Source: Yuukianura sp. NJ FZ-2021 (Eukaryota). From it: a DNA stretch of 64,000 bases. Under the pieces are notes generated by a model. The model saw only the letters and a list, made by a program, of their open reading frames with translations. It did no database searches and was not told where the DNA came from. The stretch's first letter is position 1, and each line of letters starts with the position of its first letter. The DNA is taken from NCBI GenBank assembly GCA_046563655.1, contig CM102289.1, forward strand, positions 1 to 64,000, in the 5' to 3' direction. Of the stretch, positions 14,371 through 55,670 are shown piece after piece. The translations under genes and the position numbers were made by a program.

Positions 14371-14984
14371 CAGAGGTCTACAATTTTTGTATAGAAACGT
14401 CCGTAAGGAAGAGTTTGCCAAAATTGTTTTGGGAAAAAACTAAATGAGAAGGCTACTTTTTTCAAAATGAATTAAACTTGATGCAGTTGTCAGGGAAGAT
14501 GGTTTGATGATTTGTACCAATTTTTAGCCCTCTAGAAGCAAAGGGTAAAGTGTGACGGGGCTTCAAATGTTGCCATTTCATCTTATGACGACCGCATGCA
14601 AGTAGCATATCATTGGAAAGGGTTTGACTTCCTGATGCAGAAAATGTATATATGTTGCTATGTGTGACGTAAGACATGGCTAATCCAGAGGTCTACAATT
14701 TTTGTATAGAAAAGTCCGTAAGGAAGAGTTTGCCAAAATTGTTTTGGGAAAAAACTAAATGAGAAGGCTACTTTTTTCAAAATGAATTAAACTTGATGCA
14801 GTTGTCAGGGAAGATGGTTTGATGATTTGTACCAATTTTTAGCCCTCTAGAAGCAAAGGGTAAAGTGTGACGGGGCTTCAAATGTTGCCATTTCATCTTA
14901 TGACGACCGCATGCAAGTAGCATATCATTGGAAAGGGTTTGACTTCCTGATGCAGAAAATGTATATATGTTGCTATGTGTGACG
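14371..14984. repeat. 315-bp direct tandem duplication (second copy truncated)
   Basis: cagaggtctacaattttt at 14371 and 14686, nearly identical copies. Confidence 0.95.
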
Positions 14985-14985
14985 G

Positions 14986-15017
14986 TTAGGTTAGGTTAGG
15001 TTAGGTTAGTTAGTTAG
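14986..15017 (+). repeat. Interstitial telomere-type (TTAGG)4 followed by (TTAG)3
   Basis: Read directly; TTAGG is the ancestral arthropod telomere repeat. Confidence 0.85.
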
Positions 15018-15025
15018 TAACAACT

Positions 15026-18000
15026 AGTTGATTTTCAACTTGAGCTGAGTTGATTTTCAACTTGAGCTGAGTTGATTTTCAACTTGAGCTGAGTTGATTT
15101 TCACCTTGAGCTGAGTTGATTTTCAACTTGAGCTGAGTTGATTTTCAACTTGAGCTGAGTTGATTTTCACCTTGAGTTGAATTGATTTTCAACTTGAGCT
15201 GAGTTGATTTTCACCTTGAGCTGAGTTGATTTTCAACTTGAGCTGAGTTGATTTTCAACTTGAGCTGAGTTGATTTTCAACTTGAGCTGAGTTGATTTTC
15301 AACTTGAGCTGAGTTGATTTTCAACTTTAGCTGAGTTGATTTTCAACTTGAGCTGAGTTGATTTTCAACTTGAGCTGAGTTGATTTTCAACTTGAGCTGA
15401 GTTGATTTTCAACTTGAGCTGAGTTGATTTTCAACTTGAGCTGAGTTGATTTTCAACTTGAGCTGAGTTGATTTTCAACTTGAGCTGAGTTGATTTTCAA
15501 CTTGAGCTGAGTTGATTTTCAACTTGAGCTGAGTTGATTTTCAACTTGAGCTGAGTTGATTTTCAACTTGAGCTGAGTTGATTTTCAACTTGAGCTGAGT
15601 TGATTTTCAACTTGAGCTGAGTTGATTTTCACCTTGAGTTGAATTGATTTTCAACTTGAGCTGAGTTGATTTTCAACTTGAGCTGAGTTGATTTTCAACT
15701 TGAGCTGAGTTGATTTTCAACTTGAGCTGAGTTGATTTTCAACTTGAGCTGAGTTGATTTTCAACTTGAGCTGAGTTGATTTTCAACTTGAGCTGAGTTG
15801 ATTTTCAACTTGAGCTGAGTTGATTTTCAACTTGAGCTGAGTTGATTTTCAACTTGAGCTGAGTTGATTTTCAACTTGAGCTGAGTTGATTTTCAACTTG
15901 AGCTGAGTTGATTTTCAACTTGAGCTGAGTTGATTTTCAACTTGAGCTGAGTTGATTTTCAACTTGAGCTGAGTTGATTTTCAACTTGAGCTGAGTTGAT
16001 TTTCAACTTGAGCTGAGTTGATTTTCAACTTGAGCTGAGTTGATTTTCAACTTGAGCTGAGTTGATTTTCAACTTGAGCTGAGTTGATTTTCAACTTGAG
16101 CTGAGTTGATTTTCAACTTGAGCTGAGTTGATTTTCAACTTGAGCTGAGTTGATTTTCACCTTGAGCTGAGTTGATTTTCAACTTGAGCTGAGTTGATTT
16201 TCAACTTGAGCTGAGTTGATTTTCACCTTGAGTTGAATTGATTTTCAACTTGAGCTGAGTTGATTTTCACCTTGAGCTGAGTTGATTTTCAACTTGAGCT
16301 GAGTTGATTTTCAACTTGAGCTGAGTTGATTTTCAACTTGAGCTGAGTTGATTTTCAACTTGAGCTGAGTTGATTTTCAACTTGAGCTGAGTTGATTTTC
16401 AACTTGAGCTGAGTTGATTTTCAACTTGAGCTGAGTTGATTTTCAACTTGAGCTGAGTTGATTTTCAACTTGAGCTGAGTTGATTTTCAACTTGAGCTGA
16501 GTTGATTTTCAACTTGAGCTGAGTTGATTTTCAACTTGAGCTGAGTTGATTTTCAACTTGAGCTGAGTTGATTTTCAACTTGAGCTGAGTTGATTTTCAA
16601 CTTGAGCTGAGTTGATTTTCAACTTGAGCTGAGTTGATTTTCACCTTGAGCTGAGTTGATTTTCAACTTGAGCTGAGTTGATTTTCAACTTGAGCTGAGT
16701 TGATTTTCAACTTGAGCTGAGTTGATTTTCACCTTGAGCTGAGTTGATTTTCACCTTGAGCTGAGTTGATTTTCACCTTGAGCTGAGTTGATTTTCACCT
16801 TGAGCTGAGTTGATTTTCACCTTGAGCTGAGTTGATTTTCACCTTGAGCTGAGTTGATTTTCAACTTGAGCTGAGTTGATTTTCAACTTGAGCTGAGTTG
16901 ATTTTCAACTTGAGCTGAGTTGATTTTCACCTTGAGCTGAGTTGATTTTCACCTTGAGCTGAGTTGATTTTCAGCTTGAGCTGAGTTGATTTTCACCTTG
17001 AGCTGAGTTGATTTTCAACTTGAGCTGAGTTGATTTTCACCTTGAGCTGAGTTGATTTTCAACTTGAGCTGAGTTGATTTTCAACTTGAGTTGAATTGAT
17101 TTTCAACTTGAGCTGAGTTGATTTTCAACTTGAGCTGAGTTGATTTTCAACTTGAGCTGAGTTGATTTTCAACTTGAGCTGAGTTGATTTTCAACTTGAG
17201 CTGAGTTGATTTTCAACTTGAGCTGAGTTGATTTTCAACTTGAGCTGAGTTGATTTTCACCTTGAGCTGAGTTGATTTTCACCTTGAGCTGAGTTGATTT
17301 TCAACTTGAGCTGAGTTGATTTTCACCTTGAGCTGAGTTGATTTTCACCTTGAGCTGAGTTGATTTTCAACTTGAGCTGAGTTGATTTTCAACTTGAGCT
17401 GAGTTGATTTTCAACTTGAGCTGAGTTGATTTTCAACTTGAGCTGAGTTGATTTTCAACTTGAGCTGAGTTGATTTTCACCTTGAGTTGAATTGATTTTC
17501 ACCTTGAGCTGAGTTGATTTTCACCTTGAGCTGAGTTGATTTTCAACTTGAGCTGAGTTGATTTTCAACTTGAGCTGAGTTGATTTTCAACTTGAGCTGA
17601 GTTGATTTTCAACTTGAGCTGAGTTGATTTTCAACTTGAGCTGAGTTGATTTTCACCTTGAGCTGAGTTGATTTTCACCTTGAGCTGAGTTGATTTTCAA
17701 CTTGAGCTGAGTTGATTTTCACCTTGAGCTGAGTTGATTTTCAACTTGAGCTGAGTTGATTTTCACCTTGAGCTGAGTTGATTTTCACCTTGAGCTGAGT
17801 TGATTTTCACCTTGAGCTGAGTTGATTTTCAACTTGAGCTGAGTTGATTTTCAACTTGAGCTGAGTTGATTTTCAACTTGAGCTGAGTTGATTTTCAACT
17901 TGAGCTGAGTTGATTTTCAACTTGAGCTGAGTTGATTTTCACCTTGAGCTGAGTTGATTTTCAGCTTGAGCTGAGTTGATTTTCAACTTGAGCTGAGTTG

Positions 18001-21000
18001 ATTTTCACCTTGAGCTGAGTTGATTTTCAACTTGAGCTGAGTTGATTTTCAACTTGAGCTGAGTTGATTTTCAACTTGAGCTGAGTTGATTTTCAACTTG
18101 AGCTGAGTTGATTTTCACCTTGAGCTGAGTTGATTTTCAACTTGAGCTGAGTTGATTTTCAACTTGAGCTGAGTTGATTTTCAACTTGAGCTGAGTTGAT
18201 TTTCAACTTGAGCTGAGTTGATTTTCAACTTGAGCTGAGTTGATTTTCAACTTGAGCTGAGTTGATTTTCAACTTGAGCTGAGTTGATTTTCACCTTGAG
18301 CTGAGTTGATTTTCACCTTGAGCTGAGTTGATTTTCAGCTTGAGCTGAGTTGATTTTCAACTTGAGTTGAATTGATTTTCACCTTGAGCTGAGTTGATTT
18401 TCACCTTGAGCTGAGTTGATTTTCACCTTGAGCTGAGTTGATTTTCAACTTGAGCTGAGTTGATTTTCAACTTGAGTTGAATTGATTTTCACCTTGAGCT
18501 GAGTTGATTTTCACCTTGAGCTGAGTTGATTTTCACCTTGAGCTGAGTTGATTTTCAACTTGAGCTGAGTTGATTTTCAACTTGAGCTGAGTTGATTTTC
18601 ACCTTGAGCTGAGTTGATTTTCAACTTGAGCTGAGTTGATTTTCAACTTGAGCTGAGTTGATTTTCACCTTGAGCTGAGTTGATTTTCACCTTGAGCTGA
18701 GTTGATTTTCACCTTGAGCTGAGTTGATTTTCAACTTGAGCTGAGTTGATTTTCAACTTGAGCTGAGTTGATTTTCAACTTGAGCTGAGTTGATTTTCAA
18801 CTTGAGCTGAGTTGATTTTCAACTTGAGCTGAGTTGATTTTCAACTTGAGCTGAGTTGATTTTCAACTTGAGCTGAGTTGATTTTCAACTTGAGCTGAGT
18901 TGATTTTCAACTTGAGCTGAGTTGATTTTCACCTTGAGCTGAGTTGATTTTCAACTTGAGCTGAGTTGATTTTCACCTTGAGCTGAGTTGATTTTCACCT
19001 TGAGCTGAGTTGATTTTCAGCTTGAGCTGAGTTGATTTTCAACTTGAGTTGAATTGATTTTCACCTTGAGCTGAGTTGATTTTCACCTTGAGCTGAGTTG
19101 ATTTTCACCTTGAGCTGAGTTGATTTTCAACTTGAGCTGAGTTGATTTTCAACTTGAGTTGATTTGATTTTCACCTTGAGCTGAGTTGATTTTCACCTTG
19201 AGCTGAGTTGATTTTCACCTTGAGCTGAGTTGATTTTCAACTTGAGCTGAGTTGATTTTCAACTTGAGCTGAGTTGATTTTCACCTTGAGCTGAGTTGAT
19301 TTTCAACTTGAGCTGAGTTGATTTTCAACTTGAGCTGAGTTGATTTTCACCTTGAGCTGAGTTGATTTTCACCTTGAGCTGAGTTGATTTTCACCTTGAG
19401 CTGAGTTGATTTTCAACTTGAGCTGAGTTGATTTTCAACTTGAGCTGAGTTGATTTTCACCTTGAGCTGAGTTGATTTTCACCTTGAGCTGAGTTGATTT
19501 TCACCTTGAGCTGAGTTGATTTTCAACTTGAGCTGAGTTGATTTTCACCTTGAGCTGAGTTGATTTTCAACTTGAGCTGAGTTGATTTTCAACTTGAGCT
19601 GAGTTGATTTTCAACTTGAGCTGAGTTGATTTTCAACTTGAGCTGAGTTGATTTTCAACTTGAGCTGAGTTGATTTTCAACTTGAGCTGAGTTGATTTTC
19701 AACTTGAGCTGAGTTGATTTTCAACTTGAGCTGAGTTGATTTTCAACTTGAGCTGAGTTGATTTTCAACTTGAGCTGAGTTGATTTTCAACTTGAGCTGA
19801 GTTGATTTTCAACTTGAGCTGAGTTGATTTTCAACTTGAGCTGAGTTGATTTTCACCTTGAGCTGAGTTGATTTTCAACTTGAGCTGAGTTGATTTTCAA
19901 CTTGAGCTGAGTTGATTTTCAACTTGAGCTGAGTTGATTTTCACCTTGAGCTGAGTTGATTTTCACCTTGAGCTGAGTTGATTTTCACCTTGAGCTGAGT
20001 TGATTTTCACCTTGAGCTGAGTTGATTTTCACCTTGAGCTGAGTTGATTTTCACCTTGAGCTGAGTTGATTTTCACCTTGAGCTGAGTTGATTTTCAACT
20101 TGAGCTGAGTTGATTTTCAACTTGAGCTGAGTTGATTTTCAACTTGAGCTGAGTTGATTTTCACCTTGAGCTGAGTTGATTTTCACCTTGAGCTGAGTTG
20201 ATTTTCAGCTTGAGCTGAGTTGATTTTCACCTTGAGCTGAGTTGATTTTCAACTTGAGCTGACTTGATTTTCACCTTGAGCTGAGTTGATTTTCAACTTG
20301 AGCTGAGTTGATTTTCAACTTGAGCTGAGTTGATTTTCAACTTGAGCTGAGTTGATTTTCAACTTGAGCTGAGTTGATTTTCACCTTGAGTTGAGTTGAT
20401 TTTCAACTTGAGCTGAGTTGATTTTCACCTTGAGCTGAGTTGATTTTCAACTTGAGCTGAGTTGATTTTCAACTTGAGCTGAGTTGATTTTCAACTTGAG
20501 CTGAGTTGATTTTCAACTTGAGCTGAGTTGATTTTCAACTTGAGCTGAGTTGATTTTCAACTTGAGTTGAATTGATTTTCACTTTGAGCTGAGTTGATTT
20601 TCAACTTGAGCTGAGTTGATTTTCAACTTGAGCTGAGTTGATTTTCAACTTGAGTTGAATTGATTTTCAACTTGAGCTGAGTTGATTTTCAACTTGAGCT
20701 GAGTTGATTTTCAACTTGAGCTGAGTTGATTTTCAACTTGAGCTGAGTTGATTTTCAACTTGAGCTGAGTTGATTTTCAACTTGAGCTGAGTTGATTTTC
20801 AACTTGAGCTGAGTTGATTTTCAACTTGAGCTGAGTTGATTTTCAACTTGAGCTGAGTTGATTTTCAACTTGAGCTGAGTTGATTTTCAACTTGAGCTGA
20901 GTTGATTTTCAACTTGAGCTGAGTTGATTTTCAACTTGAGCTGAGTTGATTTTCAACTTGAGCTGAGTTGATTTTCAACTTGAGCTGAGTTGATTTTCAA

Positions 21001-24000
21001 CTTGAGCTGAGTTGATTTTCAACTTGAGCTGAGTTGATTTTCAACTTGAGCTGAGTTGATTTTCAACTTGAGCTGAGTTGATTTTCACCTTGAGCTGAGT
21101 TGATTTTCACCTTGAGCTGAGTTGATTTTCAACTTGAGCTGAGTTGATTTTCACCTTGAGCTGAGTTGATTTTCAACTTGAGCTGAGTTGATTTTCAACT
21201 TGAGCTGAGTTGATTTTCAACTTGAGCTGAGTTGATTTTCAACTTGAGCTGAGTTGATTTTCACCTTGAGCTGAGTTGATTTTCAACTTGAGCTGAGTTG
21301 ATTTTCAACTTGAGCTGAGTTGATTTTCAACTTGAGCTGAGTTGATTTTCACCTTGAGCTGAGTTGATTTTCAACTTGAGCTGAGTTGATTTTCACCTTG
21401 AGCTGAGTTGATTTTCAACTTGAGCTGAGTTGATTTTCAACTTGAGCTGAGTTGATTTTCAACTTGAGCTGAGTTGATTTTCAACTTGAGCTGAGTTGAT
21501 TTTCAACTTGAGCTGAGTTGATTTTCAACTTGAGTTGAATTGATTTTCACTTTGAGCTGAGTTGATTTTCAACTTGAGCTGAGTTGATTTTCAACTTGAG
21601 CTGAGTTGATTTTCAACTTGAGCTGAGTTGATTTTCAACTTGAGCTGAGTTGATTTTCACCTTGAGCTGAGTTGATTTTCAACTTGAGTTGAATTGATTT
21701 TCAACTTGAGCTGAGTTGATTTTCAACTTGAGCTGAGTTGATTTTCAACTTGAGCTGAGTTGATTTTCAACTTGAGCTGAGTTGATTTTCAACTTGAGCT
21801 GAGTTGATTTTCACCTTGAGCTGAGTTGATTTTCAACTTGAGCTGAGTTGATTTTCAACTTGAGCTGAGTTGATTTTCAACTTGAGCTGAGTTGATTTTC
21901 ACCTTGAGCTGAGTTGATTTTCAACTTGAGCTGAGTTGATTTTCAACTTGAGCTGAGTTGATTTTCAACTTGAGCTGAGTTGATTTTCAACTTGAGCTGA
22001 GTTGATTTTCAACTTGAGCTGAGTTGATTTTCACCTTGAGCTGAGTTGATTTTCAACTTGAGCTGAGTTGATTTTCAACTTGAGCTGAGTTGATTTTCAA
22101 CTTGAGCTGAGTTGATTTTCAACTTGAGCTGAGTTGATTTTCAACTTGAGCTGAGTTGATTTTCACCTTGAGCTGAGTTGATTTTCACCTTGAGCTGAGT
22201 TGATTTTCACCTTGAGCTGAGTTGATTTTCACCTTGAGCTGAGTTGATTTTCACCTTGAGCTGAGTTGATTTTCACCTTGAGCTGAGTTGATTTTCAACT
22301 TGAGCTGAGTTGATTTTCAACTTGAGCTGAGTTGATTTTCAACTTGAGCTGAGTTGATTTTCACCTTGAGCTGAGTTGATTTTCACCTTGAGCTGAGTTG
22401 ATTTTCACCTTGAGCTGAGTTGATTTTCACCTTGAGCTGAGTTGATTTTCAACTTGAGCTGACTTGATTTTCACCTTGAGCTGAGTTGATTTTCAACTTG
22501 AGCTGAGTTGATTTTCAACTTGAGCTGAGTTGATTTTCAACTTGAGCTGAGTTGATTTTCAACTTGAGCTGAGTTGATTTTCACCTTGAGTTGAATTGAT
22601 TTTCAACTTGAGCTGAGTTGATTTTCACCTTGAGCTGAGTTGATTTTCAACTTGAGCTGAGTTGATTTTCAACTTGAGCTGAGTTGATTTTCAACTTGAG
22701 CTGAGTTGATTTTCAACTTGAGCTGAGTTGATTTTCAACTTGAGCTGAGTTGATTTTCACCTTGAGTTGAATTGATTTTCACCTTGAGCTGAGTTGATTT
22801 TCAACTTGAGCTGAGTTGATTTTCAACTTGAGCTGAGTTGATTTTCAACTTGAGCTGAGTTGATTTTCAACTTGAGCTGAGTTGATTTTCAACTTGAGCT
22901 GAGTTGATTTTCAACTTGAGCTGAGTTGATTTTCACCTTGAGCTGAGTTGATTTTCACCTTGAGCTGAGTTGATTTTCAACTTGAGCTGAGTTGATTTTC
23001 ACCTTGAGCTGAGTTGATTTTCAACTTGAGCTGAGTTGATTTTCACCTTGAGCTGAGTTGATTTTCACCTTGAGCTGAGTTGATTTTCAACTTGAGCTGA
23101 GTTGATTTTCAACTTGAGCTGAGTTGATTTTCAACTTGAGCTGAGTTGATTTTCAACTTGAGCTGAGTTGATTTTCAACTTGAGCTGAGTTGATTTTCAA
23201 CTTGAGCTGAGTTGATTTTCAACTTGAGCTGAGTTGATTTTCAACTTGAGCTGAGTTGATTTTCAACTTGAGCTGAGTTGATTTTCAACTTGAGCTGAGT
23301 TGATTTTCAACTTGAGCTGAGTTGATTTTCAACTTGAGCTGAGTTGATTTTCAACTTGAGCTGAGTTGATTTTCACCTTGAGCTGAGTTGATTTTCACCT
23401 TGAGCTGAGTTGATTTTCACCTTGAGCTGAGTTGATTTTCAACTTGAGCTGAGTTGATTTTCAACCTTGAGCTGAGTTGATTTTCACCTTGAGCTGAGTT
23501 GATTTTCAACTTGAGCTGAGTTGATTTTCAACTTGAGCTGAGTTGATTTTCAACTTGAGCTGAGTTGATTTTCACCTTGAGCTGAGTTGATTTTCACCTT
23601 GAGCTGAGTTGATTTTCAGCTTGAGCTGAGTTGATTTTCAACTTGAGCTGAGTTGATTTTCACCTTGAGCTGAGTTGATTTTCACCTTGAGCTGAGTTGA
23701 TTTTCACCTTGAGCTGAGTTGATTTTCAACTTGAGCTGAGTTGATTTTCAACTTGAGCTGAGTTGATTTTCACCTTGAGCTGAGTTGATTTTCAACTTGA
23801 GCTGAGTTGATTTTCAACTTGAGCTGAGTTGATTTTCACCTTGAGCTGAGTTGATTTTCACCTTGAGCTGAGTTGATTTTCACCTTGAGCTGAGTTGATT
23901 TTCAACTTGAGCTGAGTTGATTTTCACCTTGAGCTGAGTTGATTTTCACCTTGAGCTGAGTTGATTTTCACCTTGAGCTGAGTTGATTTTCAACTTGAGC

Positions 24001-30000: not shown

Positions 30001-31331
30001 CTTGAGCTGAGTTGATTTTCAACTTGAGCTGAGTTGATTTTCAACTTGAGCTGAGTTGATTTTCAACTTGAGCTGAGTTGATTTTCAACTTGAGCTGAGT
30101 TGATTTTCAACTTGAGCTGAGTTGATTTTCAACTTGAGCTGAGTTGATTTTCAACTTGAGCTGAGTTGATTTTCAACTTGAGCTGAGTTGATTTTCACCT
30201 TGAGCTGAGTTGATTTTCACCTTGAGCTGAGTTGATTTTCAACTTGAGCTGAGTTGATTTTCACCTTGAGCTGAGTTGATTTTCACCTTGAGCTGAGTTG
30301 ATTTTCAACTTGAGCTGAGTTGATTTTCAACTTGAGTTGAATTGATTTTCACCTTGAGCTGAGTTGATTTTCACCTTGAGCTGAGTTGATTTTCAACTTG
30401 AGCTGAGTTGATTTTCAACTTGAGCTGAGTTGATTTTCAACTTGAGCTGAGTTGATTTTCACCTTGAGCTGAGTTGATTTTCACCTTGAGCTGAGTTGAT
30501 TTTCACCTTGAGCTGAGTTGATTTTCAACTTGAGCTGAGTTGATTTTCAACTTGAGCTGAGTTGATTTTCACCTTGAGCTGAGTTGATTTTCAACTTGAG
30601 CTGAGTTGATTTTCAACTTGAGCTGAGTTGATTTTCACCTTGAGCTGAGTTGATTTTCAACTTGAGCTGAGTTGATTTTCACCTTGAGCTGAGTTGATTT
30701 TCAACTTGAGCTGAGTTGATTTTCAACTTGAGCTGAGTTGATTTTCACCTTGAGCTGAGTTGATTTTCACCTTGAGCTGAGTTGATTTTCACCTTGAGCT
30801 GAGTTGATTTTCAACTTGAGCTGAGTTGATTTTCAACTTGAGCTGAGTTGATTTTCAACTTGAGCTGAGTTGATTTTCAACTTGAGCTGAGTTGATTTTC
30901 AACTTGAGCTGAGTTGATTTTCAACTTGAGCTGAGTTGATTTTCAACTTGAGCTGAGTTGATTTTCAACTTGAGCTGAGTTGATTTTCAACTTGAGCTGA
31001 GTTGATTTTCACCTTGAGCTGAGTTGATTTTCACCTTGAGCTGAGTTGATTTTCAACTTGAGCTGAGTTGATTTTCAACTTGAGCTGAGTTGATTTTCAA
31101 CTTGAGCTGAGTTGATTTTCAACTTGAGCTGAGTTGATTTTCACCTTGAGTTGAATTGATTTTCACCTTGAGCTGAGTTGATTTTCAACTTGAGCTGAGT
31201 TGATTTTCAACTTGAGCTCAGTTGATTTTCAACTTGAGCTGAGTTGATTTTCAACTTGAGCTGAGTTGATTTTCAACTTGAGCTGAGTTGATTTTCAACT
31301 TGAGCTGAGTTGATTTTCAACTTGAGCTGAG
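15026..31331. repeat. 22-bp satellite (gttgattttcaacttgagctga), ~740 copies
   Basis: Homogeneous tandem array; main variants are caac/cacc and gagctgag/gagttgaa. Confidence 0.99.
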
Positions 31332-31827
31332 ATCTGGAAATATTTGGACATACCTGTATGTATGAAGGACTAAAACCATGATGCCCTCACAGATTAAAAA
31401 ATTAAGCCTTGACAATCTTTTTCTGTAGAAGCTGATGGGATAAATTTTTTGGCAAAGTGAGGTCAATGGAAGTAGAAGTGCTAAAAGTTTTTGCTGCCTA
31501 TTGTTTTACTAGTTGCCAATTTATCTTGTCCATGCAATTTTCAAAGCTTTTTGCAAATTTTATGACACCATTACCTAACTCACTATTATCAATCTGATAC
31601 TGTGATAATCCAAAAAAAAATTATAGCAGAATGAAATCAGCACCAACTGAACACAAATTTACTAAAAGCAGTTCATGGTCAAGTCCAAAGTGTAAAAACA
31701 TCGACACAAAAACAACAATTTCAGGACAATTAAATCAAATTCTGTTTATGTTTAACACATTTTACGACAATTTTATGTACCTATGTATATAGAGTTGTGT
31801 AAATTTCAAAAAAAAATTATTGGGATG

Positions 31828-41100: not shown

Positions 41101-44100
41101 TAGGTTGATGAGTTTAGTGGGTCGGTTGGTTGGTCAAATAGGTTGATGAGTTTAGTGGGTCGGTTGGTTGGTCAAATAGGTTGATGAGTTTAGTGGGTCG
41201 GTTGGTTGGTCAAATAGGTTGATGAGTTTAGTGGGTCGGTTGGTTGGTCAAATAGGTTGATGAGTTTAGTGGGTCGGTTGGTTGGTCAAATAGGTTGATG
41301 AGTTTAGTGGGTCGGTTGGTTGGTCAAATAGGTTGATGAGTTTAGTGGGTCGGTTGGTTGGTCAAATAGGTTGATGAGTTTAGTGGGTCGGTTGGTTGGT
41401 CAAATTGGTTGATGAGTTTAGTGGGTCGGTTGGTTGGTCAAATTGGTTTCTGAGTTTAGTGGGTCGGTTGGTTGGTCAAATAGGTTGATGAGTTTAGTGG
41501 GTCGGTTGGTTGGTCAAATAGGTTGATGAGTTTAGTGGGTCGGTTGGTTGGTCAAATAGGTTGATGAGTTTAGTGGGTCGGTTGGTTGGTCAAATTGGTT
41601 TCTGAGTTTAGTGGGTCGGTTGGTTGGTCAAATAGGTTGATGAGTTTAGTGGGTCGGTTGGTTGGTCAAATAGGTTGATGAGTTTAGTGGGTCGGTTGGT
41701 TGGTCAAATAGGTTGATGAGTTTAGTGGGTCGGTTGGTTGGTCAAATAGGTTGATGAGTTTAGTGGGTCGGTTGGTTGGTCAAATAGGTTGATGAGTTTA
41801 GTGGGTCGGTTGGTTGGTCAAATAGGTTGATGAGTTTAGTGGGTCGGTTGGTTGGTCAAATAGGTTGATGAGTTTAGTGGGTCGGTTGGTTGGTCAAATA
41901 GGTTGATGAGTTTAGTGGGTCGGTTGGTTGGTCAAATAGGTTGATGAGTTTAGTGGGTCGGTTGGTTGGTCAAATAGGTTGATGAGTTTAGTGGGTCGGT
42001 TGGTTGGTCAAATAGGTTGATGAGTTTAGTGGGTCGGTTGGTTGGTCAAATAGGTTGATGAGTTTAGTGGGTCGGTTGGTTGGTCAAATAGGTTGATGAG
42101 TTTAGTGGGTCGGTTGGTTGGTCAAATAGGTTGATGAGTTTAGTGGGTCGGTTGGTTGGTCAAATAGGTTGATGAGTTTAGTGGGTCGGTTGGTTGGTCA
42201 AATAGGTTGATGAGTTTAGTGGGTCGGTTGGTTGGTCAAATAGGTTGATGAGTTTAGTGGGTCGGTTGGTTGGTCAAATAGGTTGATGAGTTTAGTGGGT
42301 CGGTTGGTTGGTCAAATAGGTTGATGAGTTTAGTGGGTCGGTTGGTTGGTCAAATAGGTTGATGAGTTTAGTGGGTCGGTTGGTTGGTCAAATAGGTTGA
42401 TGAGTTTAGTGGGTCGGTTGGTTGGTCAAATAGGTTGATGAGTTTAGTGGGTCGGTTGGTTGGTCAAATAGGTTGATGAGTTTAGTGGGTCGGTTGGTTG
42501 GTCAAATAGGTTGATGAGTTTAGTGGGTCGGTTGGTTGGTCAAATAGGTTGATGAGTTTAGTGGGTCGGTTGGTTGGTCAAATAGGTTGATGAGTTTAGT
42601 GGGTCGGTTGGTTGGTCAAATAGGTTGATGAGTTTAGTGGGTCGGTTGGTTGGTCAAATAGGTTGATGAGTTTAGTGGGTCGGTTGGTTGGTCAAATAGG
42701 TTGATGAGTTTAGTGGGTCGGTTGGTTGGTCAAATAGGTTGATGAGTTTAGTGGGTCGGTTGGTTGGTCAAATAGGTTGATGAGTTTAGTGGGTCGGTTG
42801 GTTGGTCAAATAGGTTGATGAGTTTAGTGGGTCGGTTGGTTGGTCAAATAGGTTGATGAGTTTAGTGGGTCGGTTGGTTGGTCAAATAGGTTGATGAGTT
42901 TAGTGGGTCGGTTGGTTGGTCAAATAGGTTGATGAGTTTAGTGGGTCGGTTGGTTGGTCAAATAGGTTGATGAGTTTAGTGGGTCGGTTGGTTGGTCAAA
43001 TAGGTTGATGAGTTTAGTGGGTCGGTTGGTTGGTCAAATAGGTTGATGAGTTTAGTGGGTCGGTTGGTTGGTCAAATAGGTTGATGAGTTTAGTGGGTCG
43101 GTTGGTTGGTCAAATAGGTTGATGAGTTTAGTGGGTCGGTTGGTTGGTCAAATAGGTTGATGAGTTTAGTGGGTCGGTTGGTTGGTCAAATAGGTTGATG
43201 AGTTTAGTGGGTCGGTTGGTTGGTCAAATAGGTTGATGAGTTTAGTGGGTCGGTTGGTTGGTCAAATTGGTTTCTGAGTTTAGTGGGTCGGTTGGTTGGT
43301 CAAATAGGTTGATGAGTTTAGTGGGTCGGTTGGTTGGTCAAATAGGTTGATGAGTTTAGTGGGTCGGTTGGTTGGTCAAATAGGTTGATGAGTTTAGTGG
43401 GTCGGTTGGTTGGTCAAATTGGTTGATGAGTTTAGTGGGTCGGTTGGTTGGTCAAATTGGTTGATGAGTTTAGTGGGTCGGTTGGTTGGTCAAATAGGTT
43501 GATGAGTTTAGTGGGTCGGTTGGTTGGTCAAATAGGTTGATGAGTTTAGTGGGTCGGTTGGTTGGTCAAATAGGTTGATGAGTTTAGTGGGTCGGTTGGT
43601 TGGTCAAATAGGTTGATGAGTTTAGTGGGTCGGTTGGTTGGTCAAATAGGTTGATGAGTTTAGTGGGTCGGTTGGTTGGTCAAATAGGTTGATGAGTTTA
43701 GTGGGTCGGTTGGTTGGTCAAATAGGTTGATGAGTTTAGTGGGTCGGTTGGTTGGTCAAATAGGTTGATGAGTTTAGTGGGTCGGTTGGTTGGTCAAATA
43801 GGTTGATGAGTTTAGTGGGTCGGTTGGTTGGTCAAATAGGTTGATGAGTTTAGTGGGTCGGTTGGTTGGTCAAATTGGTTTCTGAGTTTAGTGGGTCGGT
43901 TGGTTGGTCAAATAGGTTGATGAGTTTAGTGGGTCGGTTGGTTGGTCAAATAGGTTGATGAGTTTAGTGGGTCGGTTGGTTGGTCAAATAGGTTGATGAG
44001 TTTAGTGGGTCGGTTGGTTGGTCAAATAGGTTGATGAGTTTAGTGGGTCGGTTGGTTGGTCAAATTGGTTTCTGAGTTTAGTGGGTCGGTTGGTTGGTCA

Positions 44101-47100
44101 AATAGGTTGATGAGTTTAGTGGGTCGGTTGGTTGGTCAAATAGGTTGATGAGTTTAGTGGGTCGGTTGGTTGGTCAAATAGGTTGATGAGTTTAGTGGGT
44201 CGGTTGGTTGGTCAAATTGGTTTCTGAGTTTAGTGGGTCGGTTGGTTGGTCAAATAGGTTGATGAGTTTAGTGGGTCGGTTGGTTGGTCAAATAGGTTGA
44301 TGAGTTTAGTGGGTCGGTTGGTTGGTCAAATAGGTTGATGAGTTTAGTGGGTCGGTTGGTTGGTCAAATAGGTTGATGAGTTTAGTGGGTCGGTTGGTTG
44401 GTCAAATAGGTTGATGAGTTTAGTGGGTCGGTTGGTTGGTCAAATAGGTTGATGAGTTTAGTGGGTCGGTTGGTTGGTCAAATAGGTTGATGAGTTTAGT
44501 GGGTCGGTTGGTTGGTCAAATAGGTTGATGAGTTTAGTGGGTCGGTTGGTTGGTCAAATAGGTTGATGAGTTTAGTGGGTCGGTTGGTTGGTCAAATAGG
44601 TTGATGAGTTTAGTGGGTCGGTTGGTTGGTCAAATAGGTTGATGAGTTTAGTGGGTCGGTTGGTTGGTCAAATAGGTTGATGAGTTTAGTGGGTCGGTTG
44701 GTTGGTCAAATAGGTTGATGAGTTTAGTGGGTCGGTTGGTTGGTCAAATAGGTTGATGAGTTTAGTGGGTCGGTTGGTTGGTCAAATAGGTTGATGAGTT
44801 TAGTGGGTCGGTTGGTTGGTCAAATTGGTTTCTGAGTTTAGTGGGTCGGTTGGTTGGTCAAATAGGTTGATGAGTTTAGTGGGTCGGTTGGTTGGTCAAA
44901 TAGGTTGATGAGTTTAGTGGGTCGGTTGGTTGGTCAAATAGGTTGATGAGTTTAGTGGGTCGGTTGGTTGGTCAAATAGGTTGATGAGTTTAGTGGGTCG
45001 GTTGGTTGGTCAAATAGGTTGATGAGTTTAGTGGGTCGGTTGGTTGGTCAAATAGGTTGATGAGTTTAGTGGGTCGGTTGGTTGGTCAAATAGGTTGATG
45101 AGTTTAGTGGGTCGGTTGGTTGGTCAAATAGGTTGATGAGTTTAGTGGGTCGGTTGGTTGGTCAAATAGGTTGATGAGTTTAGTGGGTCGGTTGGTTGGT
45201 CAAATAGGTTGATGAGTTTAGTGGGTCGGTTGGTTGGTCAAATAGGTTGATGAGTTTAGTGGGTCGGTTGGTTGGTCAAATAGGTTGATGAGTTTAGTGG
45301 GTCGGTTGGTTGGTCAAATAGGTTGATGAGTTTAGTGGGTCGGTTGGTTGGTCAAATAGGTTGATGAGTTTAGTGGGTCGGTTGGTTGGTCAAATAGGTT
45401 GATGAGTTTAGTGGGTCGGTTGGTTGGTCAAATAGGTTGATGAGTTTAGTGGGTCGGTTGGTTGGTCAAATAGGTTGATGAGTTTAGTGGGTCGGTTGGT
45501 TGGTCAAATAGGTTGATGAGTTTAGTGGGTCGGTTGGTTGGTCAAATAGGTTGATGAGTTTAGTGGGTCGGTTGGTTGGTCAAATAGGTTGATGAGTTTA
45601 GTGGGTCGGTTGGTTGGTCAAATTGGTTGATGAGTTTAGTGGGTCGGTTGGTTGGTCAAATAGGTTGATGAGTTTAGTGGGTCGGTTGGTTGGTCAAATT
45701 GGTTGATGAGTTTAGTGGGTCGGTTGGTTGGTCAAATAGGTTGATGAGTTTAGTGGGTCGGTTGGTTGGTCAAATAGGTTGATGAGTTTAGTGGGTCGGT
45801 TGGTTGGTCAAATAGGTTGATGAGTTTAGTGGGTCGGTTGGTTGGTCAAATAGGTTGATGAGTTTAGTGGGTCGGTTGGTTGGTCAAATAGGTTGATGAG
45901 TTTAGTGGGTCGGTTGGTTGGTCAAATAGGTTGATGAGTTTAGTGGGTCGGTTGGTTGGTCAAATAGGTTGATGAGTTTAGTGGGTCGGTTGGTTGGTCA
46001 AATAGGTTGATGAGTTTAGTGGGTCGGTTGGTTGGTCAAATAGGTTGATGAGTTTAGTGGGTCGGTTGGTTGGTCAAATAGGTTGATGAGTTTAGTGGGT
46101 CGGTTGGTTGGTCAAATAGGTTGATGAGTTTAGTGGGTCGGTTGGTTGGTCAAATAGGTTGATGAGTTTAGTGGGTCGGTTGGTTGGTCAAATAGGTTGA
46201 TGAGTTTAGTGGGTCGGTTGGTTGGTCAAATAGGTTGATGAGTTTAGTGGGTCGGTTGGTTGGTCAAATTGGTTTCTGAGTTTAGTGGGTCGGTTGGTTG
46301 GTCAAATAGGTTGATGAGTTTAGTGGGTCGGTTGGTTGGTCAAATAGGTTGATGAGTTTAGTGGGTCGGTTGGTTGGTCAAATTGGTTTCTGAGTTTAGT
46401 GGGTCGGTTGGTTGGTCAAATTGGTTTCTGAGTTTAGTGGGTCGGTTGGTTGGTCAAATAGGTTGATGAGTTTAGTGGGTCGGTTGGTTGGTCAAATAGG
46501 TTGATGAGTTTAGTGGGTCGGTTGGTTGGTCAAATAGGTTGATGAGTTTAGTGGGTCGGTTGGTTGGTCAAATAGGTTGATGAGTTTAGTGGGTCGGTTG
46601 GTTGGTCAAATAGGTTGATGAGTTTAGTGGGTCGGTTGGTTGGTCAAATAGGTTGATGAGTTTAGTGGGTCGGTTGGTTGGTCAAATAGGTTGATGAGTT
46701 TAGTGGGTCGGTTGGTTGGTCAAATAGGTTGATGAGTTTAGTGGGTCGGTTGGTTGGTCAAATAGGTTGATGAGTTTAGTGGGTCGGTTGGTTGGTCAAA
46801 TAGGTTGATGAGTTTAGTGGGTCGGTTGGTTGGTCAAATAGGTTGATGAGTTTAGTGGGTCGGTTGGTTGGTCAAATAGGTTGATGAGTTTAGTGGGTCG
46901 GTTGGTTGGTCAAATTGGTTTCTGAGTTTAGTGGGTCGGTTGGTTGGTCAAATTGGTTTCTGAGTTTAGTGGGTCGGTTGGTTGGTCAAATAGGTTGATG
47001 AGTTTAGTGGGTCGGTTGGTTGGTCAAATAGGTTGATGAGTTTAGTGGGTCGGTTGGTTGGTCAAATAGGTTGATGAGTTTAGTGGGTCGGTTGGTTGGT

Positions 47101-48450
47101 CAAATAGGTTGATGAGTTTAGTGGGTCGGTTGGTTGGTCAAATAGGTTGATGAGTTTAGTGGGTCGGTTGGTTGGTCAAATAGGTTGATGAGTTTAGTGG
47201 GTCGGTTGGTTGGTCAAATAGGTTGATGAGTTTAGTGGGTCGGTTGGTTGGTCAAATAGGTTGATGAGTTTAGTGGGTCGGTTGGTTGGTCAAATAGGTT
47301 GATGAGTTTAGTGGGTCGGTTGGTTGGTCAAATAGGTTGATGAGTTTAGTGGGTCGGTTGGTTGGTCAAATAGGTTGATGAGTTTAGTGGGTCGGTTGGT
47401 TGGTCAAATAGGTTGATGAGTTTAGTGGGTCGGTTGGTTGGTCAAATAGGTTGATGAGTTTAGTGGGTCGGTTGGTTGGTCAAATAGGTTGATGAGTTTA
47501 GTGGGTCGGTTGGTTGGTCAAATAGGTTGATGAGTTTAGTGGGTCGGTTGGTTGGTCAAATAGGTTGATGAGTTTAGTGGGTCGGTTGGTTGGTCAAATA
47601 GGTTGATGAGTTTAGTGGGTCGGTTGGTTGGTCAAATAGGTTGATGAGTTTAGTGGGTCGGTTGGTTGGTCAAATTGGTTTCTGAGTTTAGTGGGTCGGT
47701 TGGTTGGTCAAATAGGTTGATGAGTTTAGTGGGTCGGTTGGTTGGTCAAATAGGTTGATGAGTTTAGTGGGTCGGTTGGTTGGTCAAATAGGTTGATGAG
47801 TTTAGTGGGTCGGTTGGTTGGTCAAATAGGTTGATGAGTTTAGTGGGTCGGTTGGTTGGTCAAATTGGTTGATGAGTTTAGTGGGTCGGTTGGTTGGTCA
47901 AATAGGTTGATGAGTTTAGTGGGTCGGTTGGTTGGTCAAATAGGTTGATGAGTTTAGTGGGTCGGTTGGTTGGTCAAATTGGTTGATGAGTTTAGTGGGT
48001 CGGTTGGTTGGTCAAATAGGTTGATGAGTTTAGTGGGTCGGTTGGTTGGTCAAATAGGTTGATGAGTTTAGTGGGTCGGTTGGTTGGTCAAATAGGTTGA
48101 TGAGTTTAGTGGGTCGGTTGGTTGGTCAAATTGGTTTCTGAGTTTAGTGGGTCGGTTGGTTGGTCAAATAGGTTGATGAGTTTAGTGGGTCGGTTGGTTG
48201 GTCAAATAGGTTGATGAGTTTAGTGGGTCGGTTGGTTGGTCAAATAGGTTGATGAGTTTAGTGGGTCGGTTGGTTGGTCAAATTGGTTTCTGAGTTTAGT
48301 GGGTCGGTTGGTTGGTCAAATAGGTTGATGAGTTTAGTGGGTCGGTTGGTTGGTCAAATAGGTTGATGAGTTTAGTGGGTCGGTTGGTTGGTCAAATAGG
48401 TTGATGAGTTTAGTGGGTCGGTTGGTTGGTCAAATAGGTTGATGAGTTTA
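32193..48450. repeat. 38-bp satellite (ggttggttggtcaaataggttgatgagtttagtgggtc), ~428 copies
   Basis: Homogeneous tandem array with a linked variant aaattggtttctgag. Confidence 0.99.
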
Positions 48451-49178
48451 GGTAAGGCACCAAACTGAACCAAATCCAAACACATTGGTTTAATTGACTC
48501 CTCTATTTCCATTGTTTTTAGATTATTGAGCATGAGACAGTCAAGTATGAGGAGATTCCATTGTCGCCTTTATCCAAACACAGGCTGTCAGCTGTTCGGA
48601 GGAAAGTACTTGCACTGGATGTGGACGAAACACTCATCCATTCTCATCACGATGCAATTCAAAGGTAATGTCTGGAACTGGTATTTTTAATTGTCATCTC
48701 CATCAATCTCTACTTTGTTTAGGGAAAGCGTTAAGCCAGAGGCACCTCCTGACTTTATACTAAAAGTAACGATAGAGCGACACCGAGTTCGGTTTTTCGT
48801 CCACAAACGACCACACGTCGACTACTTCCTGGATGTCGTAAGTTTTAATGCATAAAAGACAACATGCATGATAAACAAAACAAATGAGGAATTCCTTTGC
48901 GTAGGTTTCCAAATGGTTCGAGTTGGTCATGTTCACTGCCTCAATGAAGATCTACGGTGCAGGTATGTTTATTCCAAATTAATGTCGGATTTTAGAGTGG
49001 AATTTGTAAGTAGGGTAAAGTTATTGAAGTTGTTAATTTGAAAACAGAGTTGGGGATGAAGTGGACAAGGGGAGGAGGATGCTGGAGACGAGATACTAGC
49101 GACCACACTGCACTCTCCACTTGGTTTCCTACACGAGGGATCTGTCCAACATTTTGTTGTGGACAACTGACCAGGAGC
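48451..49178 (+). pseudogene. CTDNEP1: Third CTDNEP1/Dullard copy (intron 1 to exon 5), disabled
   Basis: [38 protein letters not shown] and [18 protein letters not shown]. Exon 5 has a TAG at ~49097 plus deletions, and a damaged acceptor. Confidence 0.9.
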
Positions 49179-49320
49179 ATCAAAATGGACTGGAAAGAAA
49201 GTGACAGAAATAAAATGGAAATGAGAGAAACGATTGTTTCGGAGTTTGTGCTTTATTCATTGGCTGCAGTGGGAGATGTAGTGTTGACCATGTGAACTGT
49301 TGATTGTGGGACTGAATTTC

Positions 49321-50572
49321 TTAAGGGCTCCGATCGTCAGTCAGGGTTTGTTGGAAGTGTTGGGTGGTTGATTTCTCTTTGGCGGGCGAGGTTCCTGAGG
49401 CCTCCATCCGTTGGGGACTGGATGATAGGTGGGTCTTGGATGGGGAGACCAAGGAATGGACACATTCTGACTCCCCCGTCCATACAGTCCGCCCCACCCC
49501 CACGACTCAGCCGCTTCCGCCCAACGACCCAGGCCAGACCCACCACCCCGCCCCCAACTCCCCTCTCCACCCGAACTCCACACCCACGGCCAACCTGCAA
49601 ACAAAAGAAACGTTGTACTGACGTTGAGGTGTTTTTGTTGACAAGGAACAAGACCTCTGCGTTAGAGACACTTCTGAAGTGAGGTTGTGGTGGAATGTGC
49701 TGGATCCAGGAATGAGACTCCACCAAATCCCCACCCACTGACCACCATCACCCAAGCAGCACAAAAGCATCAAACAATCTTAGCCCGAAACCCGAACTAG
49801 TGTTCAACTTGGCCCCACCTTCGAAGGGGACTTGGGACTAAAAGAGTGAAAGTGGCTTACCAAAGTCTCCTCTGCCCATTGGTCCACCACGCATCACCCC
49901 TCTTCCTCTCAGTCCCAGTCCCAGTGGAGGCACAATCCTACAACACAGCCACATTAGACTGGAGTTGGAAAGTGAAACGATTCCCACTTACGCCATGTTC
50001 CTCTGCTGGGCCATGGCTGCCATCATTCTGCGCTCTCTCGCTCTGAGCACTACCTCCTTTTTCCGTTTGTCAGATGGAGGTTTGGCCAGTAAAATGTCCA
50101 TCAGAGACCCACACACCTCCTTCCCACTCAGACTCTCCAGAGCACTCTCCGCTGACTCACGACTCTCGTAGTGCACAAAGGCATAATCCTAAGGAAACAA
50201 AGGAAGAGTGAACATTTGTCAAAGTGAAAGCAGAAAGTAGTCCTTACTTTGATTTTCTTGACTCGATCCACATGTCCATGAGCCTCAAACACTTCCTTGA
50301 GCCTCTCCTCACTCACATCCTGCGTCAGATTCTTTACGTAGAGCACTTTCACTTTGGCCATTGTGTCTTCATCTGGTTCCTCCTGAGGGTCAGCCCAGTC
50401 TACTGCACAACCACAACAAATAAGACGGAGCCCCACACTTTGACTCGAGAGGTGCCGAGTCGTCGCTTGGCGAGAGACGCTGATTTGTGAGACTCGTACT
50501 CTAGGAAACAGAATCCTCGATTCTTCTTCCTGTCGTCCGGTGAACTGTAAATGATGATCTCTTTCAGTCCCG
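49321..50572 (-). pseudogene. SYNCRIP: SYNCRIP/hnRNP R (Syp) 3' genomic fragment, RRM2-RRM3 to RGG-like tail
   Basis: IIYSSPDDRKKNRGFCFLEYESHKSASLAKRRL, VDWADPQEEPDEDTMAKVKVLYVKNL, YAFVHYESRE, LAKPPSDKRKKE..RERR. Frameshift near 50430, introns retained, 5' part missing. The 3' boundary is approximate. Confidence 0.88.
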
Positions 50573-50589
50573 CTGAAGCAATCAGTCCA

Positions 50590-50634
50590 TTAGGTTAGGT
50601 TAGGTAAAGCCTAACCCTAAACCTAACCTAACCT
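50590..50634. repeat. (TTAGG)3 followed by inverted CCTAA-type repeats
   Basis: ttaggttaggttaggtaaagcctaaccctaaacctaacctaaccta read directly. Confidence 0.85.
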
Positions 50635-53600
50635 AGCTTTGGGATTGAGCTCTGGGATTGAGCTTTGGGATTGGGCTTAGGGATTGAGCTTTGGGATTAA
50701 TCTTTGGGATTGAGCTTAGGGATTGAGGTTTGGGATTGAGCTTTGGGATTGAGCTCTGGGATTGAGCTTTGGGATTGAGGTTTGGGATTGAGCTTTGGGA
50801 TTGAGCTCTGGGATTGAGCTCTGGGATTGAGCTTAGGGATTGAGCTTTGGGATTGAGGTTTGGGATTGAGCTTTGGGATTGAGCTCTGGGATTGAGCTTA
50901 GGGATTGAGCTTTGGGATTGATCTTTGGGATTGAGCTTTGGGATTGAGGTTTGGGATTGAGCTTTGGGATTGAGCTCTGGGATTGAGCTTAGGGATTGAG
51001 CTTTGGGATTAATCTTTGGAATTGATCTTTGGGATTGAGCTTTGGGATTGAGGTTTGGGATTGAGGTTTGGGATTGAGCTCTGGGATTGAGCTTAGGGAT
51101 TGAGCTTTGGGATTGAGCTCTGGGATTGAGCTTTGGGATTGAGCTCTGGGATTGAGCTTAGGGATTGAGCTTTGGGATTGAGGTTTGGGATTGAGCTTTG
51201 GGATTGAGCTCTGGGATTGAGCTTAGGGATTGAGCTTTGGGATTGATCTTTGGGATTGAGGTTTGGGATTGAGCTCTGGGATTGAGCTTAGGGATTGAGC
51301 TTTGGGATTGAGCTCTGGGATTGAGCTCTGGGATTGAGCTTAGGGATTGAGCTTTGGGATTGAGCTCTGGGATTGAGCGTAGGGATTGAGCTTTGGGATT
51401 GAGCTCTGGGATTGAGCTCTGGGATTGAGCTTAGGGATTGAGCGTAGAGATTGAGCTTTGGGATTGAGCTTTGGGATTGAGCTCTGGGATTGAGCTTAGG
51501 GATTGAGCTTTGGGATTGAGCTCTGGGATTGAGCTCTGTGATTGAGCTTAGGGATTGAGCGTAGGGATTGAGCTTAGGGATTGAGCTTTGGGATTGAGGT
51601 TTGGGATTGAGCTTTGGGATTGAGCTCTGGGATTGAGCTTAGGGATTGAGCTTTGGGATTGATCTTTGGGATTGAGCTTTGGGATTGAGGTTTGGGATTG
51701 AGCTTTGGGATTGAGCTCTGGGATTGAGCTTAGGGATTGAGCTTTGGGATTAATCTTTGGGATTGATCTTTGGGATTGAGCTTTGGGATTGAGGTTTGGG
51801 ATTGAGCTTTGGGATTGAGCTCTGGGATTGAGCTTAGGGATTGAGCTTTGGGATTGAGCTCTGGGATTGAGCTCTGGGATTGAGCTTAGGGATTGAGCTT
51901 TGGGATTGATCTTTGGGATTGAGCTTTGGGATTGAGGTTTGGGATTGAGCTTTGGGATTGAGCTCTGGGATTGAGCTTAGGGATTGAGCTTTGGGATTAA
52001 TCTTTGGGATTGATCTTTGGGATTGAGCTTTGGGATTGAGGTTTGGGATTGAGCTTTGGGATTGAGCTCTGGGATTGAGCTTAGGGATTGAGCTTTGGGA
52101 TTGAGCTCTGGGATTGAGCTTTGGGATTGAGCTCTGGGATTGAGCTTAGGGATTGAGCTTTGGGATTGAGGTTTGGGATTGAGCTTTGGGATTGAGCTCT
52201 GGGATTGAGCTTAGGGATTGAGCTTTGGGATTGATCTTTGGGATTGAGGTTTGGGATTGAGCTCTGGGATTGAGCTTAGGGATTGAGCTTTGGGATTGAG
52301 CTCTGGGATTGAGCTCTGGGATTGAGCTTAGGGATTGAGCGTAGGGATTGAGCTTTGGGATTGAGCTTTGGGATTGAGCTCTGGGATTGAGCTCTGGGAT
52401 TGAGCTCTGGGATTGAGCTTAGGGATTGAGCTTTGGGATTGAGGTTTGGGATTGAGCTTTGGGATTGAGCTCTGGGATTGAGCTTAGGGATTGAGCTTTG
52501 GGATTGAGCTTTGGGATTGAGCTCTGGGATTGAGCTTTGGGATTGAGGTTTGGGATTGAGCTATGGGATTGAGCTCTGGGATTGAGCTTAGGGATTGAGC
52601 TTTGGGATTAATCTTTGGGATTGATCTTTGGGATTGAGCTTTGGGATTGAGGTTTGGGATTGAGCTTTGGGATTGAGCTCTGGGATTGAGCTTAGGGATT
52701 GAGCTTTGGGATTGAGCTCTGGGATTGAGCTTTGGGATTGAGCTCTGGGATTGAGCTTAGGGATTGATCTTTGGGATTGAGCTTTGGGATTGAGGTTTGG
52801 GATTGAGCTTTGGGATTGAGCTCTGGGATTGAGCTTAGGGATTGAGCTTTGGGATTAATCTTTGGAATTGATCTTTGGGATTGAGCTTTGGGATTGAGGT
52901 TTGGGATTGAGGTTTGGGATTGAGCTCTGGGATTGAGCTTAGGGATTGAGCTTTGGGATTGAGCTCTGGGATTGAGCTTTGGGATTGAGCTCTGGGATTG
53001 AGCTTAGGGATTGAGCTTTGGGATTGAGGTTTGGGATTGAGCTTTGGGATTGAGCTCTGGGATTGAGCTTAGGGATTGAGCTTTGGGATTGATCTTTGGG
53101 ATTGAGGTTTGGGATTGAGCTCTGGGATTGAGCTTAGGGATTGAGCTTTGGGATTGAGCTCTGGGATTGAGCTCTGGGATTGAGCTTAGGGATTGAGCTT
53201 TGGGATTGAGCTCTGGGATTGAGCTCTGGGATTGAGCTTAGGGATTGAGCGTAGGGATTGAGCTTTGGGATTGAGCTTTGGGATTGAGCTCTGGGATTGA
53301 GCTCTGGGATTGAGCTCTGGGATTGAGCTTAGGGATTGAGCTTTGGGATTGAGGTTTGGGATTGAGCTTTGGGATTGAGCTTAGGGATTGAGCTTTGGGA
53401 TTGAGCTTTGGGATTGAGCTCTGGGATTGAGCTTTGGGATTGAGCTCTGGGATTGAGCGTAGGGATTGAGCTTTGGGATTGAGCTCTGGGATTGAGCTCT
53501 GGGATTGAGCTTAGGGATTGAGCGTAGAGATTGAGCTTTGGGATTGAGCTTTGGAATTGAGCTCTGGGATTGAGCTTAGGGATTGAGCTTTGGGATTGAG

Positions 53601-55563: not shown

Positions 55564-55670
55564 TGTATGTTTTTCAGAGGGATCTCTAAGTGCATTAGGC
55601 ACAGAGAGGATCACGGCGATGAGGCGCACTGTCGGGCCTATTTCGCTCTCTCCATAACACCAATTTAATT

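Follow-up and report, generated by a model that had tools for sequence, protein, structure and literature searches.

Satellite arrays and telomere-type tracts in the window

The window analyzed here, that is, the whole stretch of 64,000 nt formed by positions 1 to 64,000 (forward strand) of contig CM102289.1 in the genome assembly of the springtail Yuukianura sp. NJ FZ-2021 (GCA_046563655.1), contains four large satellites, with units of 48, 22, 38 and 13 bp, all of them on the + strand in the inventory of tandem arrays made with Tandem Repeats Finder. Those with units of 22, 38 and 13 bp start just beyond a short tract of TTAGG repeats, TTAGG being the telomeric motif reported in Collembola (PMC8977481), and we refer to the three boundaries as J1, J2 and J3, respectively. 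As a whole, the window is a gene-poor patchwork of dead gene copies (CTDNEP1, HSP70 and hnRNP Q), transposons and young, homogeneous arrays. The arrays, the junctions and the segments that meet there are the following:

6774..9310, + strand, 48-bp satellite (6774-8916, resuming at 9188-9310); 45.6 copies, split by an insert at 8917-9187
14369..14984, + strand, 315-bp direct repeat in two copies; the second copy ends 14 nt before the unit end
14984..15017, + strand, J1 telomeric tract, GG(TTAGG)4(TTAG)3; the first G is common to the broken flank
15018..15025, + strand, J1 filler of 8 nt, TAACAACT
15026..31331, + strand, 22-bp satellite; 741 copies, 97% matches, 16,306 bp
31332..32176, + strand, non-array tail of 845 bp, partly related to a CTTCCATTTTGA-type repeat at 4060-4917
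32177..32187, + strand, J2 telomeric tract, GGTTAGGTTAG
32188..32192, + strand, J2 filler of 5 nt, CCAAC
32193..48451, + strand, 38-bp satellite; 428 copies, 98% matches, 16,259 bp
48452..50589, dead duplicated fragment of two convergent genes (CTDNEP1-like on the + strand, hnRNP Q/SYNCRIP-like on the minus strand)
50590..50605, + strand, J3 left tract, (TTAGG)3T
50606..50609, + strand, J3 spacer of 4 nt between the opposed tracts, AAAG
50610..50635, minus strand, J3 right tract, 26 nt of TTAGG-type repeats on that strand
50635..55563, + strand, 13-bp satellite, first part; 379 copies, 90% matches (both parts: 90-91%)
60176..63322, + strand, 13-bp satellite, second part; 242 copies, the final units decayed and ending in ...GAGGTTAGGAAT

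The association of TTAGG tracts with the starts of the 22-, 38- and 13-bp arrays is real. The 21,216 nt of non-array DNA hold 6 periodic tracts of at least 9 nt (5 on the + strand and 1 on the minus strand), against 0.56 expected from a first-order simulation in which the maximum over 300 runs was 4. Moreover, TTAGGTTAGG is seen 6 times where 0.15 occurrences are expected, a number reached in none of 100 shuffles. Three of the five + strand tracts end close to one of the four independent array starts (17, 6 and 30 nt upstream); only 0.57% of the non-array positions lie that near to an array start, which gives a binomial P of about 2e-6. Inside the arrays, telomere-type tracts of at least 8 nt are absent from all four. 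A preliminary description of this DNA had every large array begin at a TTAGG tract. This holds for the three arrays just named, but not for the 48-bp array, whose start at 6774 has no such tract; that the 48-bp unit itself contains tttagg twice, as was also pointed out, is true but uninformative. The enrichment in T and G on the + strand of all the satellites is confirmed, with G+T fractions of 0.78, 0.64, 0.77 and 0.73 against 0.51 in the non-array DNA. With four arrays, however, the two-sided probability of a common polarity is 1 in 8, and the agreement carries no statistical weight. The 13-bp array had been said, in addition, to end in ggttagg. The sequence is present, at 63322, and GGTTAGG occurs nowhere else in the ~620 units of this satellite, but the last two units each differ from the consensus by about two changes, and the motif is probably a decayed last unit.

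A derivation of the satellites from the telomere repeat was rejected, because the units align with (TTAGG)n no better than composition-matched shuffles do (a fraction of 0.12-0.85 of the shuffles scored at least as high on the + strand, at crude alignment settings). The birth of the arrays from their own flanks was also tried and set aside: the comparison of 8 flanks with 4 units on 2 strands gave one weak match only, that of the reverse 22-bp unit with 63423-63456, to the right of the 13-bp array, which has a z of 5.2 and is regarded as unproven. No higher-order repeat periodicity, of the sort that would trace rolling-circle amplification, stands out in the arrays.

Anatomy of the three junctions

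The junctions have a common anatomy, in which a flank is followed by a few telomeric repeats (tracts of 11-34 nt), by 4-8 nt of filler and then by an unrelated DNA end. At J1, the broken second copy of the 315-bp repeat leads into GG(TTAGG)4 TTAG TTAG TTAG, the 8 nt of TAACAACT and, from 15026, the 22-bp array. The two copies of the repeat (14369-14669 and 14684-14984) are 99.7% identical across 301 nt; copy 1 runs 14 bases further and then into the next unit, whereas copy 2 stops at 14984. The cut in mid-unit at 14984, with a telomeric tract next to it, is borne out by this comparison with copy 1, even if what had been called a repeat amounts to two copies only. J1 is also the only junction at which the tract can be compared with the ancestral sequence, represented by copy 1, and a single G is in register. 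At its right edge (31331), the 22-bp array ends in a plain junction, free of telomeric repeats.

At J2, GGTTAGGTTAG (32177-32187) does stand ahead of the 38-bp array, as previously described, with CCAAC between it and the first array base at 32193. The right edge of this array meets the gene fragment that follows through a 2-nt microhomology (AG), again with no telomeric repeat. At both J1 and J2, the filler closes with a few bases that repeat, in inverted orientation, those with which the array begins. The last 5 nt of TAACAACT and the first bases of the 22-bp array form the perfect palindrome CAACT-AGTTG (15021-15030), and the filler and the array start at J2 form another, also perfect, of 12 nt, CCAACC-GGTTGG (32188-32199). 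In both, the centre falls no more than one base from where the array begins; in the non-array DNA, palindromes with arms of at least 5 nt are found at 36 of 21,210 centres, and those with arms of at least 6 nt at 17 of 21,210.

J3 is built differently, in that its tracts are opposed. The RRM exon of the hnRNP Q/SYNCRIP-like fragment, on the minus strand, starts after a ...tttacag acceptor near 50543, and 46 nt of intron lie between it and (TTAGG)3T (50590-50605); AAAG, the 26 nt of CCTAA-type repeats (50610-50635) and the 13-bp array follow. On the + strand the right tract reads CCTAAC CCTAAA CCTAA CCTAA CCTA, with two variant units, and abuts the array. The arrangement at J3 is a head-to-head one, in which the sequence in direct contact with the 13-bp array is an inverted tract, belonging to the opposite strand. 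Paired with each other, the opposed tracts form a stem of 16 bp whose energy is -14 kcal/mol; the value for shuffles is -6.4 +/- 1.9 kcal/mol, and none of them (0 of 200) folds as well. The interruption of the SYNCRIP intron near 50590 and the (TTAGG)3 next to it, both noted earlier, are as described, but the 13-bp array does not come directly after TTAGG, since the CCTAA-type tract intervenes.

Contigs from four public runs were placed on 48300-50800, with 32 of 2,424 pieces and 24 of 60 loose ends listed. A contig of 1171 nt from run X1 agrees with the window over 50100-50589, apart from 7 differences, before continuing for 681 nt that are unlike the window, and a contig of run X5, which carries another organism label and comes from another study, likewise ceases to match at 50589. 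At J1 and J3, the left flank is therefore broken, because in each case a sister copy continues beyond the break, and the claim that two of the arrays start on abruptly broken sequence stands, at 14984 and 50589. Run X2 has the window's own letters beside J3, and the bin that contains J3 has depth in all four runs.

Gene fragments and other features

Two convergent genes are represented, as a dead copy, in the 2.1-kb piece that separates the 38- and 13-bp arrays. The RRM exons on its minus strand are hnRNP Q/SYNCRIP-like, the closest solved relative being 6kor (hnRNP Q/SYNCRIP; E 6.8e-14), and the CTDNEP1-like part on the + strand has 8ujl as its best solved relative (E 5.3e-16). The CTDNEP1-like part is disrupted by an in-frame TAG and by the loss of 22 nt, and it also carries an in-frame TGA that recurs in the copy at 11.8 kb. 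Since the TGA is present in both the 11.8-kb and the 49.1-kb copies, it was an already dead copy that was duplicated. Moreover, other contigs hold 199 additional bases at 49178/49179, and the window copy has therefore also been internally deleted. Alignment with the copy at 11150-11975, in which the upstream exon is retained, places the right edge of the 38-bp array at the first base of the CTDNEP1-like intron 1; a contig of run X5 also carries the CTDNEP1 upstream exon beyond that array junction. In the hnRNP Q-like fragment, a 23-nt stretch at ~50403-50425 (minus strand) shifts the frame between ...KVWGS and VDWADPQ..., and looks like the tail of a mostly deleted intron, or another lesion of the dead copy.

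Three partial CTDNEP1-like copies are found in the window, at 950-3517, 11225-12968 and 48468-49178, with HSP70 fragments mixed into the first two. The summed word depth, a rough measure that, as the tool cautions, is not copy number, is several to about 40 times higher over the CTDNEP1 part than over the hnRNP Q part, which is unique, and suggests several to a few tens of CTDNEP1-like copies genome-wide. Over the 38- and 13-bp arrays it is ~300-1,800 times that of the unique part, as compared with 428 and 621 units assembled, a hint that these two satellites are largely local to this locus. Metagenome scans gave 0 matches to the 38-bp unit and 0 to a dimer of the 22-bp unit. The Pfam scan, which covered 55 of the 177 non-array frames of at least 45 codons, revealed only host-gene fragments, aside from a retrotransposon inside the 13-bp array. 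This retrotransposon and the tracts found beyond the array are located as follows:

55564..60175, minus strand, non-LTR (long terminal repeat) retrotransposon, a bystander inside the 13-bp array, with intact ORF1 and ORF2 (open reading frames)
63409-63419, 63433-63440 and 63733-63760, + strand, short TTAGG-type tracts to the right of the 13-bp array

The retrotransposon, of 4.6 kb, has an ORF1 of 175 aa (DUF4780) and an ORF2 of 1256 aa with endonuclease, reverse transcriptase and RNase H domains and a zf-RVT tail. It lies in phase with the 13-bp array; the insertion left no target duplication (one G is missing), there is no poly(A) tail, and the element is apparently young. To the right of the array, the + strand carries a duplicated TTAGG-plus-TTACAAATTCAAA motif (63409-63456) and a T-rich TTTAGG run (63733-63760), and no large array follows the tracts at 63409-63760 within the window. 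The final 20 bases (63980-64000) resemble a variant 13-bp unit, and an array related to the 13-bp satellite may resume just past the window end. The insert that splits the 48-bp array (8917-9187, 271 bp) resembles a miniature inverted-repeat transposable element, with perfect terminal inverted repeats of 16 nt and an apparent target duplication of 3 bp. A tRNA-like sequence at 4403-4476 (Ser-GGA according to ARAGORN; 51 bits against the Rfam tRNA model), the only match in the Rfam and tRNA scans, is found among CTTCCATTTTGA-type minisatellites and may be the head of a short interspersed nuclear element or a tRNA pseudogene.

Discussion

On balance we lean, with modest confidence, towards J1, J2 and J3 being the scars of telomerase-seeded ends that were joined to ends inside satellite arrays, J3 having been seeded on both sides. 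We infer that the tracts were made by telomerase. A left DNA end would have broken within the gene-poor patchwork and would have been extended by telomerase by two to seven repeats, too few for a working telomere; the seeded end would then have been end-joined, with few filler bases, to another free end, itself within a satellite array. Seeding at J3 would have affected both ends, giving the opposed TTAGG and CCTAA tracts. Satellites may have served as partners through their frequent breakage and the many free ends that this would provide, and the joining itself may have been of the non-homologous end joining (NHEJ) or of the polymerase-theta type. Short inverted fillers such as those at J1 and J2 would be the product of templated snap-back synthesis, of the polymerase-theta kind. 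Short interstitial telomeric sequences (ITSs) are described as arising at break repair, accompanied by deletions, random additions, inverted duplications and changes of the NHEJ type (PMC7215372), and head-to-head tracts have been ascribed to the work of another telomerase on the opposite side of the break (PMC8537989). In cancer genomes, neotelomeres have been found later fused to a second site, and fusions of telomeric to centromeric repeats are on record (PMC11293586). A break followed by telomeric seeding had been proposed in the preliminary description, and this part of the proposal is supported by the cut flanks at J1 and J3 and by the tract sequence, TTAGG being what telomerase makes in this lineage. 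The head-to-head tracts at J3 imply that the 13-bp array has a seed of its own on the opposite strand, and the other part, a stack of such events in one orientation, is thereby weakened.

Several points weigh against scars of seeded end joining. The junctions J1 to J3 are without independent read support, because no contig piece bridging J3 is among the 32 of 2,424 listed, because runs X1-X3 are probably the assembly's own sample, and because reads were placed around J3 only. The left flank at J2 has no sister copy, hence breakage is not demonstrable there. The flanks at all three junctions are unrelated, which makes them rearrangement junctions, unlike the classical insertion of a short ITS. 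Random end joining explains neither the satellite partner in three cases of three nor the + strand location of all five isolated tracts. Finally, the near-equal lengths of the 22- and 38-bp arrays (16,306 and 16,259 bp) may be coincidental or may reflect collapse in the assembly, to about read length. Such lengths and the lack of a bridging contig at J3 are also what would speak for an assembly artefact, with arrays collapsed or mis-joined and different loci stitched together. We hold this to be very unlikely: exact short TTAGG tracts with filler are not produced by mis-joins, the junctions span a few tens of nt, well within one long read, and the reads around J3 include the window's own letters in run X2, with depth in the J3 bin in all four runs. 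Even harder to credit is that the tracts arose by chance, or that TTAGG-like sequence expanded locally, as a microsatellite, where array edges had decayed. The satellites are G/T-rich, and the ggttagg at 63322 is of such a kind, but the excess of tracts (6 against 0.56), their placement (P of about 2e-6), units that are no more telomere-like than shuffles of the same composition and arrays free of any tract of at least 8 nt all argue against this explanation.

That the junctions are fossil chromosome ends is possible, if on the whole unlikely. J1, then J2, then J3 would be successive ends that were healed as working neo-telomeres, shortened and buried by captured distal DNA, through translocation, break-induced replication or fusion, in a layering like that of human subtelomeres. 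The shared orientation of the five isolated tracts, their position at block boundaries and the subtelomere-like mosaic of dead, multi-copy gene fragments in which they are embedded are all consistent with such a history, as are the (TTAGGG)n tracts reported at duplicon boundaries in human subtelomeres, mostly telomere-pointing and with one head-to-head case. The tracts in the window measure 11-34 nt, however, against 150-200 bp for the typical human island (PMC2323237). In an improbable variant, the arrays would themselves be substitute telomeres, a minimal seed having been extended by a recombination or rolling-circle process, akin to the alternative lengthening of telomeres, into a locus-private, G/T-rich satellite of the same polarity. 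The absence of higher-order periodicity and the units' lack of telomere-likeness give it no support; if true, three neo-telomere caps, formed one after another on a hexapod chromosome, would be preserved in the window, which would also illustrate the birth of satellites at chromosome ends. A mobile, satellite-carrying module tipped with TTAGG, for example of the Helentron or the terminal-retroelement type, was the other origin put forward initially, and an array does follow the tract in three cases. It finds no support in the junctions and is highly improbable: the three arrays, the spacers and the flanks have no common sequence, and the left flank at J1 and at J3, instead of being a fixed terminus, consists of host or repeat sequence that has been truncated. 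Moreover, no transposon domain (in the 55 of 177 frames scanned) or terminal structure is found at the boundaries, and the rough word depth, ~300-1,800 times that of the unique part where 428 and 621 units are assembled, hardly allows for many further copies.

In any event, this type of feature is already well described elsewhere. The springtail instance is new; taken as a single window, it neatly illustrates a process that is already known, and no new mechanism. Our literature searches, with most subscription journals outside reach, returned no description, for springtails, of telomeric tracts where satellite arrays begin. If the pattern were genome-wide, the short TTAGG scars would form a record, at nucleotide resolution, of chromosome breaks and of the placement of satellite arrays, and this in a hexapod lineage that branched early and whose telomeres and satellites have hardly been treated in the literature. 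Telomerase action at internal breaks would then also be shown outside vertebrates.

Comparison with known systems

The Sultan and Suber subtelomeric repeats of Chlamydomonas have telomere-like sequence at the telomere-facing edge of the repeat, which has been discussed as a healing primer, and in the window, too, such sequence is found at the edge of tandem repeats. The Chlamydomonas seed is present in every unit, however, whereas here it is found at the array boundary only (PMC8287924). The opposed TTAGG/CCTAA orientation of ITSs formed by fusion, as at human 2q13 (PMC7215372, PMC8537989), recurs here at J3 only. Fusion ITSs are flanked on both sides by former subtelomeric DNA, while the left flank of J3 is the broken intron of a dead gene and its tracts measure 16 and 26 nt; J3 is not a fusion of two mature chromosome ends. 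Neotelomere fusions in cancer (PMC11293586) offer another parallel, in that a break is healed by telomeric repeats and then fused, and in that the repeats come to adjoin a centromeric satellite, as they adjoin satellites here. The cancer fusions are somatic and have tracts of kilobases, whereas J1 to J3 are germline-fixed and tiny.

The tracts of human subtelomeres (PMC2323237) are found, like J1 to J3, at the boundaries of unrelated blocks, amid multi-copy dead gene fragments, mostly in one orientation and with one head-to-head case. Human islands are mostly of 150-200 bp and degenerate, while the tracts described here are of 11-34 nt and nearly exact; moreover, the human blocks are shared duplicons, and those of the window are long, apparently local satellite arrays. 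The short ITSs of primates, rodents and horse (PMC7215372, PMC8537989) likewise consist of few, exact internal telomeric repeats, and the tracts of the window have about 2 to 7 units. Deletions, random additions and short inverted duplications at short ITS junctions have counterparts in the fillers of 8, 5 and 4 nt and in the palindromes found here, and occasional head-to-head tracts, which these sources attribute to telomerase on both sides of a break, have theirs in J3. The flanks of a short ITS, however, are contiguous in the empty locus. This is not so here, as the sister copy has another 14 nt at J1 and, at J3, 681 nt unlike the window. The right flanks in the window are satellite arrays, so each tract marks a rearrangement.

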